8,493 bases of DNA from the IMG/VR virus record IMGVR_UViG_2541047885_000003; one strand, given 5' to 3'. Below the pieces are notes generated by a model. That model was not told the DNA's origin and searched no databases. It saw only the letters and a list, made by a program, of their open reading frames with translations. The stretch comes from a virus. Taxonomy: Duplodnaviria > Heunggongvirae > Uroviricota > Caudoviricetes. The translations under genes were made by a program, and so were the position numbers. Below are positions 2,644-8,463 of this stretch, piece after piece; within the stretch, counting starts at the first letter, position 1, and every line of letters begins with the position of its first letter.

Positions 2644-2720
2644 CGTAAAAACTGCTTCAATTCCGGTACGCTTCGCAAAGCTGTACCACGAGGCGAATAG
2701 CAGACATGGACATTTGAAAG

Positions 2721-2746
2721 AGCCCGCTTTTTGCGGGTTTTTTTAT
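2721..2746 (+). terminator. Rho-independent terminator, tR'-like (end of the short PR' leader transcript)
   Basis: agcccgc-ttttt-gcgggtt hairpin followed by a T7 run (tttttttat). Confidence 0.7.
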
Positions 2747-2867
2747 GCCTGAAAAACGGCACAGAACATTAAACGCGCTGGTGGTTGCGAATACCGGTCT
2801 TTCAGCTTGCTGGCTTTTCCGACAAGAGTTATTGGTATGTTACGTTAACCAGAAAAGGGAAAAAGAC

Positions 2868-3065
2868 ATGCTAAAACAGCAGGATATGACCGAAACCGCC
2901 AGAGTGGTGTTTAATGAGTTAAGCGTCACCGAACCGGCGACAGTCGGGGAGATTGCACAGAATACTTACCTTTCACGCGAACGCTGCCAGTTAATACTGA
3001 CCCAGCTTGTTATGGCGGGTCTGGCAGACTATCAGTTTGGTTGTTACAGACACCTTCAGTCCTGA
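2868..3065 (+). CDS. small (65 aa) putative winged-helix DNA-binding protein, PapI/FaeA-like pattern
   Basis: ATG 2868 preceded by AAAAGGGA SD; MLKQQDMTETARVVFNELSVTEPATVGEIAQNTYLSRERCQLILTQLVMAGLADYQFGCYRHLQS has the name-TxxEIA-helix layout of small wHTH regulators. The track ORF start at 2745 lies inside the tR' T-tract and has no RBS. Confidence 0.45.
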   Translation: MLKQQDMTETARVVFNELSVTEPATVGEIAQNTYLSRERCQLILTQLVMAGLADYQFGCYRHLQS

Positions 3066-3080
3066 AGGCTTTTTTATTTG
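3053..3080 (+). terminator. Rho-independent terminator overlapping the stop codon of the small wHTH ORF
   Basis: ccttca-gtcc-tgaagg stem-loop followed by cttttttatttg. Confidence 0.55.
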
Positions 3081-3394
3081 TGGTAAATGGGCGGCTGGTG
3101 GGTGTGGTGGTTGTTGCTTTCCCGTTGCTGAAAAAGAAAACGCCAGACTGTTAGCCGGGTATCAGTTATCTGGAGAAATTTTTAAATACCTCACAATTCA
3201 GGCGGTTGACTGTTGTCTGGTTTGCGGGGAGTTTGTTAAAAGAAACTGGCATGGTGAATCCCCCTGTGCGGAGGGGCAATCAGCAACTGGTGTTTTGTCA
3301 CCGACCCTTATCCTTTCTGTGCGGGTTCAGGTGCTGATACTGAACTCACCGGGAGGCACCCGGCATCATGCAATGGCACATAGCGCCACTCTCC

Positions 3395-3430
3395 AGCCCC
3401 TCTCCGGAGGGGCTGTTTATATTGATTTTG
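3395..3430 (+). terminator. Rho-independent terminator ending a ~330 bp non-coding stretch
   Basis: Perfect 8-bp stem agcccctc / gaggggct with tccg loop, followed by gtttatattgattttg. On the minus strand it is preceded, not followed, by the U-rich tract, so it is + strand specific. Confidence 0.5.
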
Positions 3431-3446
3431 TCAGATGTGAGTAAAC

Positions 3447-3480
3447 TCCTTATGGACTTTGTTGTTTTAGTCCATAAGGA
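3447..3480. terminator. perfect 12-bp inverted repeat (hairpin) between convergent transcription units; possible bidirectional terminator
   Basis: tccttatggact (3447-3458), 10-nt loop ttgttgtttt, agtccataagga (3469-3480); overlaps the last codons of the minus-strand ORF 3450-3785. Confidence 0.4.
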
Positions 3481-3785
3481 CATATTTGCAGAGTGCAACG
3501 GTTATTAAAGCATTCATTCAATACGTTATCTGTATTTGTAGGACATTCCTGGCTGTTTTTGATTAAATTCCAGAATGTTTTATTGAATGGTGCTACGTTG
3601 TAAATGGTTACAGGTAGCACTTTGTTATTGAGCATGATACCTGTGTGAGTCAGTGTAAATATACTTTCAGGAGGTAAGAAAGCATCCGATTGATACCAGA
3701 TTATTAATTTTATTTTACTCCATATGACTGAAAAAGATATTCCGCATGATGGCTGGATAACTGTATCAATCACAATCCACTTCAT
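3450..3785 (-). CDS. hypothetical protein (111 aa), ORFan in AT-rich island, transcribed opposite to the phage late operon
   Basis: Minus-strand ATG 3783-3785 with AAGGA SD about 6 nt upstream; five Cys in the C-terminal third (QECPTN...[16 protein letters not shown]); base composition far more AT-rich than the flanks. No family recognised. Confidence 0.4.
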
Positions 3786-3852: not shown

Positions 3853-4045
3853 CCATAGAGCAGAATTATTTTTCTGATGTTGTTTATTGTTTATTTAAAT
3901 GCAGGGTGGTTTATATCTCGTCTTGTAGTTTATCCATGCATATCTGCTTGATGATGAGGTTTTTATTTAAGGTATGGTTTTGTGTTTTTTCTGTATTACA
4001 TGTCAGGTATTTTAAAGAATTATTTTTCAGATGGTGGAAAGAACC

Positions 4046-6006
4046 ATGGCATTTAAACACTATGATGTTGTCAGGGCGGCATCGCCGTCAGACCTTGCGA
4101 AACGACTGACACAAAAACTGAAGGAGGGGTGGCAGCCATTTGGCAGTCCGGTGGCCATCACGCCTTATACCCTGATGCAGGCCATTGCGGCGGAAGGTGA
4201 TGTCACCACACCTGTGGTGGTGAAGCCGTCGGATGGAGAAGGCGCAGTTATCAGCACCACCAGCAACCCGGAGTATTACTTTGTTGTTGCCCTAGCCGGG
4301 CGGTCAAACGGTATGGCGTATGGTGAAGGGCTTCCGCTGCCGGAGACATATGACCGTCCGGACCCGCGTATTAAACAGCTGGCGCGTCGCAGCACTGTCA
4401 CGCCGGGTGGTGCGTCCTGTAACTACAATGACATTATTCCTGCGGACCACTGCCTGCATGATGTTCAGGATTTGAGTAAGTTTTCACACCCGAAAGCCAG
4501 CGCAGCTCAGTATGGATGCGTGGGGCAGGGATTACATATCGCGAAGAAATTGTTGCCGTTTATTCCGGCGAATGCCGGTATTCTTCTGGTTCCGTGCTGC
4601 CGTGGTGGTTCTGCATTTTTGGCGGGCGATGAAGGTACCTTCAGCGAATCCACCGGCGCAAGCGAGACCTCGGCACGCTGGGGTGTTGATAAGCCACTGT
4701 ACAAGGACCTGCTTACCCGTACTCAGGCCGCACTGAAGGCCAACCCTAAAAATATTCTGCTTGCAGTGGTCTGGATGCAGGGCGAGTTTGATTTGAAACA
4801 GGGTGCATACGCCACTCAGCCGGGGCTGTTTGATTCCATGGTGGAAAAATATCGTTCTGACCTGTCGGAATTCGGAGGTCAGTGTCTCGGGGGCTCTCCG
4901 TCATCAGTTCCCTGGATTTGTGGCGACACGACCTACTACTGGAAGCAGACTTATTCTTCGCAATACGATGCGGTGTATGGTGCATATAAGACGAAATCCG
5001 CAAAAAAATCTTCTTTGTGCCGTTTATGACGGATGAAAACGGGCGAAATGTGGGTACCAACGAGCCGTCAGAAGATCCGGATGTTGCGGATATTGGGTAT
5101 TACGGAGCCGGTGGTCGAACGGACGCCAAAACCTGGACGACGGCCGACCGTAAAACGCATTTTGGATCATGGGCACGTCGTGGGATTATTTCCGACCGTC
5201 TGGCAACGGCGATTCTTGTGCATGCCGGGAGAAACGCTGAATTCATTACCGGAAAACAGCCTGATACGGTGAAGCCCACCGGACCTTCCGGTGAAGGTAC
5301 GGAGAGAGAGCCGGAAGCCCCGGTCAGTAACCGAACCCTGATGAGTCTGCTGGCGTCCGGCGAAGACCTGGCATCACAGGGCTGGCGCTATTATCACAAA
5401 CCGGCGAGCGGAGACAATGTTAACAAAAACATTGCTGAAGCGGTGGTCAGTGATGCGGGGGCTACGGGAGGTAAGGCCCTGCAACTGAATAAACCGGAAA
5501 ACCACATCTGGTTTCTGGAGCATGATGCAGCCGGACAGGGAGTGGAGTTACTGAAGAAGGGGGGACGTGTGAGCGTACGGTTTAAGTTGCCGGGTTCACT
5601 GGTGCCGAATCAGTTTGCCCTGGGCATTTACTGGCAGTTGTCGTCCCTGCCGGAGGGAGTGACGCTGGCAGAGGAAGGCAACGACATGCTGATGTCCTTC
5701 TTCCTGCAGACGGATGCGACGAACCTGAACGCGATGCACCACAAGAAGCCGAATGCGAAGCTGGATACGTTCGGGGTCTTTGATAACGGATGGCACACAC
5801 TGGCTTTTGAGTTTGCCGGAAACAACAGCATTCAGGTGACGCCGGTACTGGATGAGAAACGGGGGACGCCGTTCACACTGGTGAAATCTCCGGCATCAGG
5901 GGCGGCGGACAAACTGCAACTGACAGGCATATCAAAGGCGGCGACATATACGCTGCTGATTGACAGTGTGAAGGTGGAAGTGAACAACGCGGATGCCGCG
6001 GCATGA
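4046..6006 (+). pseudogene. nanS: prophage sialate O-acetylesterase (NanS-p-like: N-terminal DUF1737-like region + SGNH/SASA esterase + C-terminal domain), interrupted by a frameshift at an A7 tract (5002-5008)
   Basis: Frame A 4046-5029 (MAFKHYDVVRAASPSDL..., contains the GRSNG esterase block) and frame B 5017-6006 together total ~655 codons, the size of intact NanS-p as I recall it. The frames overlap at gcAAAAAAAtc; adding one A (or removing two) fuses them into ...SAKKIFFVPFMTDENG.... Confidence 0.65.
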
Positions 6007-6142
6007 TAAAAAAAGGCCGCCAGCGGCAGGAATGGAAGCTGGCGGAGGTAATCCCAATGGAGAATGTAAAGAAAAGATGCTTTCGTATATCGGTTTTTTA
6101 AATGAAAACAGTTCTCATTGTCAACCATAACGGTAAGAAATT

Positions 6143-6325
6143 ATGACATTTATTCATCAGGTGATGCTGTACTTCTGTACGGCAGTCTGTGTTATGTATC
6201 TTCTTTCGGGTGGGTACAGGGCAGTGCGCGATTTCTGGCGCAGGCAGATTGATAAAAGGGCCGCTGAGAGAATCAGCGCCAGTCAGTCAGCCGGAAGCAA
6301 ACCCGAAGATCCGCTCATTCCGTAG
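6143..6325 (+). CDS. hypothetical small protein (60 aa) with one hydrophobic segment
   Basis: ATG 6143 with a weak RBS; N-terminal VMLYFCTAVCVMYLL looks like a single transmembrane helix. Overlaps the implausible N-terminal extension of the 6189 track ORF. Confidence 0.3.
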   Translation: MTFIHQVMLYFCTAVCVMYLLSGGYRAVRDFWRRQIDKRAAERISASQSAGSKPEDPLIP

Positions 6326-6684: not shown

Positions 6685-6900
6685 ATGTACCAGATGGAAA
6701 AAATCACAACAGGTGTGTCATACACCACGTCAGCGGTGGGAACGGGCTACTGGTTCCTGCAGTTGCTGGACAGGGTTTCCCCGTCTCAGTGGGCGGCAAT
6801 AGGCGTGCTGGGGAGTCTGCTGTTTGGGCTGCTGACGTACCTGACTAACCTGTATTTCAAAATCAAAGAGGACCGGCGTAAGGCGGCGCGGGGAGAGTAA
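6685..6900 (+). CDS. S: class II holin, phage 21 S-type (pinholin-like), with possible dual start (Met1 6685 / Met4 6694)
   Basis: [71 protein letters not shown]: two transmembrane segments plus a charged C-terminus; near-identical in pattern to the S21/933W-type holins as I remember them; GGGAGA SD upstream. Confidence 0.85.
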
Positions 6901-7929: not shown

Positions 7930-8463
7930 ATGAACACCAAAATCAAATACGGCCTGTCGGCTGCCGTTCTGGCGCTGATTGCCGCTGGTGCGCCTGCGCC
8001 TGACATTCTCGACCAGTTTCTGGATGAAAAGGAAGGCAACCACACCACAGCATACCGTGATGGTGCAGGTATCTGGACCATCTGCCGTGGTGCCATCATG
8101 GTGGATGGCAAACCTGTCGTTCCGGGCATGAAGTTGTCGAAGGAAAAATGCGACCAGGTTAACGCCATTGAGCGTGATAAAGCGCTGGCGTGGGTGGAGA
8201 AAAACATCAGAGTGCCGCTGACCGAACCCCAGAAAGCGGGGATCGCGTCATTCTGTCCGTACAACATTGGTCCCGGTAAGTGTTTCCCGTCGACGTTTTA
8301 CAGACGAATTAATGCTGGTGATCGAAAAGGTGCCTGCGAAGCGATTCGCTGGTGGATTAAGGACGGTGGCAGAGACTGCCGTATTCGTTCAAACAACTGT
8401 TACGGTCAGGTATCCCGTCGTGACCAGGAGAGCGCGCTGGCGTGCTGGGGTATCGACAGATAA
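7930..8463 (+). CDS. R: SAR endolysin (T4-lysozyme-type muramidase with N-terminal signal-anchor-release domain)
   Basis: N-terminal Gly/Ala-rich weakly hydrophobic segment GLSAAVLALIAAGA (SAR-like), then E-x8-D-x5-T spacing (EGNHTTAYRDGAGIWT) matching the T4 lysozyme catalytic triad; matches my memory of Stx-phage R proteins. Confidence 0.9.
   Translation: MNTKIKYGLSAAVLALIAAGAPAPDILDQFLDEKEGNHTTAYRDGAGIWTICRGAIMVDGKPVVPGMKLSKEKCDQVNAIERDKALAWVEKNIRVPLTEPQKAGIASFCPYNIGPGKCFPSTFYRRINAGDRKGACEAIRWWIKDGGRDCRIRSNNCYGQVSRRDQESALACWGIDR

Follow-up and report, generated by a model that had tools for sequence, protein, structure and literature searches.

We analyzed an 8,493-nt stretch of tailed-phage DNA (IMG/VR record IMGVR_UViG_2541047885_000003; hereafter, the window) and found that it encodes, at positions 3249-3424 of the + strand, a member of the STnc100 family of small RNAs (sRNAs). 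We are highly confident in this reading of the locus as an sRNA gene, most likely one with its own promoter whose product associates with Hfq and acts in trans by base-pairing. As a discovery the element carries no weight, the family being already in Rfam and in several papers, with members described in enterohaemorrhagic and enteropathogenic Escherichia coli (EHEC and EPEC) and in Salmonella. It does mark an annotation gap: at every copy listed, RefSeq omits the sRNA yet annotates the 24-codon gene fragment that adjoins it. The family ranks among the most abundant prophage sRNAs of E. coli, with one copy directly after the Shiga toxin (Stx) genes stx2, and it offers several experimental handles, namely a 5′ end shared with the EPEC sRNA PasD, a covarying long-range helix, a 3′ cassette that appears swappable, and a candidate CRP-like box.

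A first-pass annotation, made from the letters of the window, had proposed a structured regulatory sRNA of the Stx-prophage kind ending near 3425. That proposal is borne out by a full-length STnc100 match, by relatives located 3′ of stxB, and by published work on expression and Hfq binding. The length it gave, ~350 nt, is corrected here to ~176-205 nt.

Family membership and covarying structure

Searching the window against all Rfam families returned a single strong match, to STnc100 (RF02076, 'Gammaproteobacterial sRNA STnc100'), at 3220-3424 on the + strand (133.5 bits, E = 5e-30, against a gathering score of 47). The match is untruncated, covering model positions 1-206 of 206, and every consensus feature is present within 3249-3424: the closing stem, the CCCCU/AGGGG, GGGUUCAG/CUGAACUC and CCGGG/CCCGG hairpins, and a 3′ intrinsic terminator. 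Like other members of the family, which is multi-copy in E. coli (PMC5331693), the window copy retains all consensus helices and the terminator and lies in a prophage late region. Its score is nonetheless the lowest among the scored STnc100-proper loci (139-208 bits for the others), a shortfall that stems from differences in its variable hairpin and 3′ linker. The Rfam model itself starts 29 nt upstream of the 5′ end proposed below and does not contain the long-range helix that we describe.

BLAST comparisons with phage genomes revealed that homology to divergent phages begins at ~3182-3191 and extends to the terminator. All 10 phage loci fetched from these hits carry a full-length STnc100 element at the equivalent site (139-208 bits), and at the 8 loci with an annotated stx or an engineered remnant, the element lies just 3′ of stxB. 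It begins ~75-80 nt past the stop codon of stx2B or stx1B at the stx-annotated loci and follows the engineered stx remnant in phage 24B; in both 933W and 24B, the anti-sRNA AsxR is encoded convergently, directly behind the STnc100 copy. The window itself contains no match to AsxR or AgvB (RF02703, RF02702) at E up to 10. The first-pass annotation had regarded descent from a tRNA or from stx-flanking sequence as grounds for abandoning the sRNA. The latter is literally the case, and it is no refutation because the flank is itself an sRNA gene. A tRNA or tRNA remnant was rejected, as ARAGORN called 0 tRNA genes across the window and no match to the Rfam tRNA model appeared at E up to 10; the true tRNAs of the relatives sit upstream of stx.

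The core at 3249-3424 folds with a minimum free energy (MFE) of -73.8 kcal/mol (z = -3.48), a value that 1 of 200 shuffled sequences equals, and the fold of the whole interval 3081-3430 is not unusual (z = -1.44). Since a good fold is also obtained for the reverse strand of the core (z = -2.83), fold energy alone is no proof of strand, which is decided by the T-tract and the covariance-model match. For comparative analysis, we used the start of the RNA as a search pattern and collected 149 occurrences from fetched phage and E. coli loci, IMG/VR contigs and GTDB representative genomes, comprising 99 distinct sequences; 48 distinct 5′ domains were aligned. The Rfam consensus and RNAalifold on these 48 relatives agree on a conserved 5′ domain at 3249-3371 (+), whose helices are the closing stem P1 (3249-3256 with 3364-3371), P2 (3261-3265 with 3272-3276), a variable hairpin (3288-3292 with 3299-3303), P3 (3323-3330 with 3340-3347) and P4 (3349-3353 with 3359-3363), with P1 to P4 all recovered by RNAalifold. 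P4 is the ccggg-aggca-cccgg hairpin that the first-pass annotation had placed, exactly, at 3349-3363, and it corresponds to an Rfam STnc100 consensus helix. An alternative pairing of 3266-3276 with 3312-3322 in the window's MFE structure is not conserved in relatives, and the consensus P2 was preferred. Across the alignment, 92.1% of cells are paired, compared with 34-44% when the partners are slid, and 0 of 500 shuffles reached the observed paired-cell percentage, both-side-change count or covariation score. Compensatory changes on both sides affect 5 of the 8 pairs in P3; P1, P2 and P4 are nearly invariant, as are ~120 nt of the 5′ domain.

A further, pseudoknot-type helix joins 3279-3285 (AUCAGCA) to the P3 loop at 3332-3338 (UGCUGAU) on the + strand. 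Helices of 6-10 bp form between these positions in 5 of 7 sequence classes, and the two strands co-vary as AUCAGCA/UGCUGAU; AUCAGUAC/GUACUGAU; CUGGUGCA/UGCACCGG; CUGGUG with CACCAG, CACCGG or UACCAG; CUGGUGU/ACACCGG; AAUGAC/GUCAUU; CUGGCU/AGCCAG; and, in PasD, AAUGAUC/GAUCAUU. The mean helix formed with a sequence's own loop is 6.9 bp, compared with 4.0 bp for shuffled loops and 4.2 bp for loops of other classes, and changes on both sides occur at 5 of 7 aligned pairs despite some classes being out of register in the alignment; the predicted duplex energy is -8.1 kcal/mol. These both-side changes and own-loop pairings indicate that P3 and the long-range helix are both under selection, either coexisting as a pseudoknot or alternating as a switch. 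The covariation check across homologous prophage regions that the first-pass annotation had suggested returns compensatory changes in both helices. The long-range pairing is absent from the Rfam consensus structure and from a 2026 preprint that ties STnc100 to EPEC PasD by structure and synteny (10.64898/2026.05.13.724894), which makes no mention of a pseudoknot, promoter, CRP or DUF3927.

The element does not encode a conserved protein. The first-pass annotation had described ~350 bp of apparently non-coding sequence crossed by a sole open reading frame (ORF); this ORF exists (3007-3444, 145 aa, TTG start). It matches nothing in Pfam, and stops interrupt its frame one or more times in 72 of the 99 distinct relatives. 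An AUG at +3 of the RNA (MVNPPVRRG...) opens peptides of 8-71 aa among relatives, nearly invariant over the first 9 codons and divergent after residue 9. Neither is conserved, and coding through either was rejected. The description of the interval as non-coding stands for the sRNA portion and fails for its first ~75 bases: positions 3080-3154 (+) encode, in another frame, a 24-codon, GTG-initiated C-terminal fragment of a DUF3927 gene (MVNGRLVGVVVVAFPLLKKKTPDC), which is not part of the sRNA. The fragment scores 32 bits against Pfam DUF3927 (PF13064; cut-off 25) over profile positions 32-53 of 53, falling short of the full-length protein of ~50 aa with two hydrophobic segments, and RefSeq annotates it as a coding sequence in ATCC 25922 and many genomes. 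An intact 52-aa DUF3927 gene lies immediately upstream of both EPEC copies, PasD1 and PasD2 (959-1117 of locus L012 and 862-1020 of locus L013). This small hydrophobic or membrane protein gene is syntenic with the sRNA family, and the window keeps only its 3′ end, beside the terminator of a 65-codon ORF. A type I toxin-antitoxin arrangement with DUF3927 was considered and rejected, as no DUF3927 gene accompanies the STnc100 copies that follow stxB, and in the window the fragment is truncated.

Among characterized relatives, the stx2-proximal copy of EHEC O157:H7, called EcOnc27 in Sakai and sRNA103 in EDL933 and 86-24, lies 3′ of stx2B in Sp5/933W and shares with the window the family, the 5′ domain, the promoter layout and the moron site after the late promoter. 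It differs in its linker and terminator (AGUAUACAGAGAUUAGGCAUAUACCA..., compared with AAUGGCACAUAGCGCCACUCUC in the window) and in its P3 loop and pseudoknot class (CUGGUG/UACCAG); its 933W copy is paired with a convergent AsxR, whereas the window has an iraM-like gene in that place and no stx upstream. PasD1 and PasD2 of EPEC E2348/69 share with the window the start GCAUGGUGAAUCC, the overall architecture and a pseudoknot-type pairing (AAUGAUC/GAUCAUU), and their loci carry a DUF3927 gene upstream and, for PasD2, an esterase gene downstream. They score 38-41 bits against STnc100, below the gathering score, and have a different type of promoter, with a TTGACT -35 inside the end of DUF3927. Neither the PasD seed UGUGAG nor its terminator GGCUGCGCAU(U/G)GCGC(A/G)GCC occurs in the window, which is thus not a PasD; the kinship is at the level of the 5′ domain only. 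AsxR, AgvB and StxS share the neighbourhood, Stx phages carrying dyads of convergent Hfq-binding sRNAs from the late promoter to the lysis genes (PMC7873438, PMC4104026), but are 51-74-nt sponges or early-terminated pR′ transcripts that lack the 5′ domain.

Boundaries, probable promoter and the exchangeable 3′ end

By RNA-seq and Northern blotting, PasD1 and PasD2 are 172-173 nt long (PMC8550237), and the estimated PasD2 start is the G of GCAUGG (in GCAUGGUGAAUCC; NC_011601 position 741157). Because this motif begins at 3249 in the window, we infer a 5′ end there by homology, some way inside the Rfam match starting at 3220, and an RNA of ~176 nt (3249-3424, +), an estimate that fits the measured PasD size.

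The predicted promoter region spans 3180-3248 (+). Within it, 3213-3242 is a probable, non-canonical sigma-70 promoter, judged by its motifs: a -35 TTGTCT (3213-3218), an 18-nt spacer, a TG (3234-3235) and a -10 TAAAAG (3237-3242). The family has two promoter types, and each keeps a TAAAA(A/G) box at 6-8 nt before GCATGG; in the STnc100 type, a TG stands in front of the box. RpoD ChIP-exo binding has been reported at Salmonella STnc100 copies (PMC10794520). The first-pass annotation had seen no convincing promoter by eye; a consensus scan agrees in making no call, yet a promoter-like region can be named. TTGACT at 3206-3211 was rejected as the -35, being 25 nt and thus too far from the TAAAAG box, while the alternative -10 at 17 nt, GAGTTT, is poor. 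A sigma-54 promoter was also rejected, as inspection by eye found no GG-N10-GC arrangement, though an RpoN signal has been reported at Salmonella copies.

Further upstream, a putative CRP-like box at 3180-3195 (+; TTTTA-AATACC-TCACA) would be centred at -61.5 if +1 is 3249, the class I CRP position. Most relatives have TGTTA-N6-TCACA, at a constant distance to GCATGG even where the promoters diverge; the left half-site of the window, TTTTA, is weak, matching at 3 of 5 positions. The larger block to which this box belongs, TGTTA-N6-TCACAATTCAG...GTTGAC (3180-3211, +), is nearly invariant in STnc100-type copies. Its GTTGAC is too distant from the -10 box to be a -35 element, and in 933W-type copies it falls within a TGACAG-N4-CTGTCA inverted repeat.

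Transcription is predicted to end at an intrinsic terminator at 3394-3424 (+), with a 9-bp stem (3394-3402/3407-3415), a UCCG loop and the downstream tract UUUAUAUUG. The terminator scan reports the hairpin as CAGCCCCUC-UCCG-GAGGGGCUG at 3394-3415, with 9 pairs of which 7 are G-C, followed by TTTATATT, and the same helix is recovered by the Rfam consensus and the MFE fold. The terminator that the first-pass annotation had drawn at 3395-3430 is therefore real, with a stem of 9 rather than 8 bp.

Past P1, the family becomes a mosaic in which at least 10 unrelated linkers of ~16-60 nt are joined to a few terminator types, and in some copies a PasD-type terminator follows a 5′ domain of the STnc100 type. 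The window linker, AAUGGCACAUAGCGCCACUCUC (3372-3393, +), connects the 5′ domain to the terminator and is the commonest in the sample. It probably carries the seed, because the predicted PasD seed lies in the corresponding linker; more speculatively, its CACUCUCC would pair with GGAGAGUG-like, that is, Shine-Dalgarno-like, sequences. Two same-orientation copies ~270-480 bp apart were observed in some phages (for example at 1539-1750 and 1812-2025 of locus L003) and at several IMG/VR loci (including L020, L028, L036, L049, L080 and L090), and the paired copies differ in variable hairpin, pseudoknot class and 3′ linker. As a tentative generalization, to which we give slightly less than even credence, the family may consist of a conserved, pseudoknotted 5′ scaffold onto which recombination swaps linker and terminator cassettes, behind a promoter that is possibly class I CRP-dependent. 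Lysogens would thereby gain a modular, multi-copy sRNA platform.

Function and competing explanations

Published data on relatives outline how such an element might work. EcOnc27/sRNA103 has been detected by Hfq-CRAC and Northern blotting (PMC4104026, PMC7873438), and its overexpression raised fimZ and espA by a route not established (PMC12711010); a machine-learning study also placed sequence variants of this copy among its top predictors of haemolytic uraemic syndrome (PMC12711010). At least 8 Sakai prophages carry convergent sRNA 'dyads' at their moron site, which lies between pR′ and the lysis genes (PMC4104026, PMC7873438). EDL933 carries 11 Rfam STnc100 copies, all transcribed in LB at 97-1897 RPKM (reads per kilobase per million) and one verified by Northern blotting (PMC5331693). 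STnc100 was found in outer-membrane vesicles by RT-qPCR with a forward primer equal to window positions 3250-3269 (PMC12370729). RIL-seq chimeras of PasD1 and PasD2 form mainly through the 3′ ~50 nt (PMC8550237), and the predicted seed UGUGAG likewise falls in the 3′ part (PMC8550237 supplements). Rfam-based reviews assign STnc100 no function (PMC9029176).

We propose that the element is a self-contained moron in the late operon, lying after Q and the late promoter and ahead of the esterase and lysis genes. The RNA would be expressed in the lysogen from its own promoter and ended by the intrinsic terminator at 3394-3424. Its 3′ linker, helped by Hfq bound at the terminator and U-tail, would base-pair in trans with mRNAs or other sRNAs. 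The 5′ domain would then act as a stabilizing or protein-binding scaffold, with the linker and terminator as the exchangeable part. As for Hfq dependence, a terminator is present and is followed by UUUAUAUU rather than by 6 or more consecutive U residues, and Hfq binding is documented for relatives (PMC4104026, PMC8550237).

Several observations weigh against this proposal. The evidence of expression comes from relatives, and no STnc100 member has a validated target. The transferred 5′ end relies on PasD, which scores 38-41 bits against the STnc100 model, and could be a processing site. The candidate promoter matches the -35 consensus at 4 of 6 positions, has no T at -7 in its TAAAAG box and goes uncalled by the consensus scan. 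The U-tail UUUAUAUU is interrupted where most relatives have a UUUUUU-type tract, which may weaken both termination and Hfq binding. For P1, P2 and P4, the support consists of conservation and energy, the search pattern having fixed P1 and P2. Finally, an EPEC supplementary table lists little change for PasD1 and PasD2 (log2 -0.18 and +0.55) where PasA, PasB and PasC drop; if the comparison is hfq mutant to wild type, as we presume, PasD stability may not depend on Hfq.

The same table, with its presumed direction, lends something to a different explanation, in which the conserved 5′ domain is the functional part, as a protein- or ligand-binding RNA or as a cis-acting element of the late transcript (acting in its processing or stability, or controlling the flanking stx, esterase or lysis genes), and the linker is a mere spacer. 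Near-invariance over ~120 nt across mosaic phages, including P1, P2, P4 and the junctions, exceeds what a simple hairpin needs, covarying long-range helices are typical of compact tertiary folds, and the place of the element within the late operon is constant, so that Q-modified polymerase must read through it (PMC4104026). We nevertheless consider this explanation unlikely: relatives are Hfq-bound, and their 3′ parts form chimeras with many mRNAs (PMC8550237), the element has a promoter-like box and a terminator of its own, linker exchange looks like seed diversification, and no Rfam riboswitch or ribozyme family matches the 5′ domain at E up to 10.

Less probable still is an inert, decayed stx flank or recombination remnant whose hairpin merely terminates the 65-codon ORF, the DUF3927 fragment or the convergent iraM-like gene. 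The prophage is indeed decaying (118-bp DUF968 deletion, frameshifted esterase, truncated DUF3927), the sequence is homologous to that found 3′ of stxB, and its U-tail is weaker than those of its relatives. Yet the covariance-model match is full-length, the ATCC 25922 copy is identical, 352 records match at 99% identity or more, and family-wide covariation reveals selection on RNA pairing. Nor does the hairpin suit the neighbouring genes, since the minus strand has no T-tract after it, as an iraM terminator would require, and the upstream 65-codon ORF has its own hairpin at 3053-3068. A protein-coding role, whether through ORF 3007-3444 or through a short peptide from the AUG two bases into the RNA, is the most improbable of all, and we give it almost no credence. 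The nearly invariant first 9 codons and the ribosome footprints on some EDL933 copies, with coverage values up to 3.2 (PMC5331693), would fit such a role, but peptide length varies between 8 and 71 aa, ribosome coverage is low on most EDL933 copies (PMC5331693), the long ORF is broken in most relatives and unmatched in Pfam, and substitutions follow base-pairing rather than codon patterns. Each of these explanations is less likely than a trans-acting sRNA.

Distribution and prophage setting

Megablast finds matches to the 176-nt core in 2693 of 5426 complete E. coli genomes, at up to 9 places per genome, and RefSeq annotates the sRNA at none of the matches listed; a few matches are on large plasmid records. 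A strict-pattern scan of genome contigs recovered 10 loci, mostly from Escherichia, a count that does not gauge the true taxonomic range. Exact copies of the E. coli-type sRNA start also appeared on very short contigs assigned to unrelated taxa, namely L140 (a Veillonella metagenome-assembled genome, MAG), L143 (Xanthomonas pisi, 888 bp) and L136 (a Proteobacteria MAG). The sequence on L143 does not differ from the 933W copy, nor the one on L140 from EPEC PasD2, and all three contigs look like contamination of the assemblies by E. coli or phage DNA.

Gene calls, drawn from ORFs in the window, Pfam scans and the RefSeq annotation of the near-identical ATCC 25922 locus, identify the window as the late-regulatory part of a lambdoid prophage. 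A disrupted DUF968 gene (777-1708) and a RusA gene (1721-2080) precede a Q-type antiterminator gene (DUF1133/Phage_antitermQ, 2077-2643) upstream of the sRNA. A 65-codon ORF (2868-3065), with its terminator-like hairpin, ends before the sRNA-bearing stretch (3081-3430), which is bounded on its other side by the iraM-like gene (3450-3785, minus strand), an anti-adaptor gene named IraM in RefSeq and without a Pfam match. Downstream lie a frameshifted DUF1737/SASA/DUF6645 esterase gene (4031-6006), a holin gene (6685-6900) and a lysozyme-like ORF (7930-8463), the last assigned from position and a syntenic EPEC locus without a Pfam scan. The sRNA therefore sits after Q and pR′ and before the lysis genes, equivalent to the site after stxB in relatives.

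With ATCC 25922 as the reference, 118 bp are missing from the DUF968 gene of the window (at 1493/1494), a deletion that splits the gene into ORFs 777-1526 and 1547-1708. The window also has two one-base indels in the esterase gene (5001/5002 and 5558/5559) and scattered substitutions; the esterase is frameshifted in both sequences. No difference falls within 3081-3430, while neighbouring genes differ or are broken, so that the sRNA region has stayed unchanged in a decaying prophage.

Other features of the locus concern its transcription units. Directly 3′ of the Q-like gene, a short unit at 2644-2747 (+) closes in a strong intrinsic terminator at ~2721-2747 (gagcccgc-tttt-gcgggttttttta). Its matches to Rfam isrK and Trp_leader are weak and sub-threshold (18-19 bits), and by position it is probably the early-terminated transcript between pR′ and tR′, in the place of lambda 6S RNA or StxS. 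A PasA/PasC/Esr41-like sRNA between the esterase and holin genes was rejected, as 5990-6150 has no homology to the EPEC PasA region and the Rfam match to Esr41 reached 18 bits against a gathering score of 102. The iraM-like gene converges on the sRNA terminator, taking the place of the Stx-phage anti-sRNA AsxR/AgvB, and a 36-nt inverted repeat (3446-3481) overlaps its 3′ end. Just past the esterase stop codon, a G+C-rich hairpin (ggccgccagc...gctggcgg, 6007-6050) is flanked by an A-run on the + strand and would thus read as a terminator on the minus strand.

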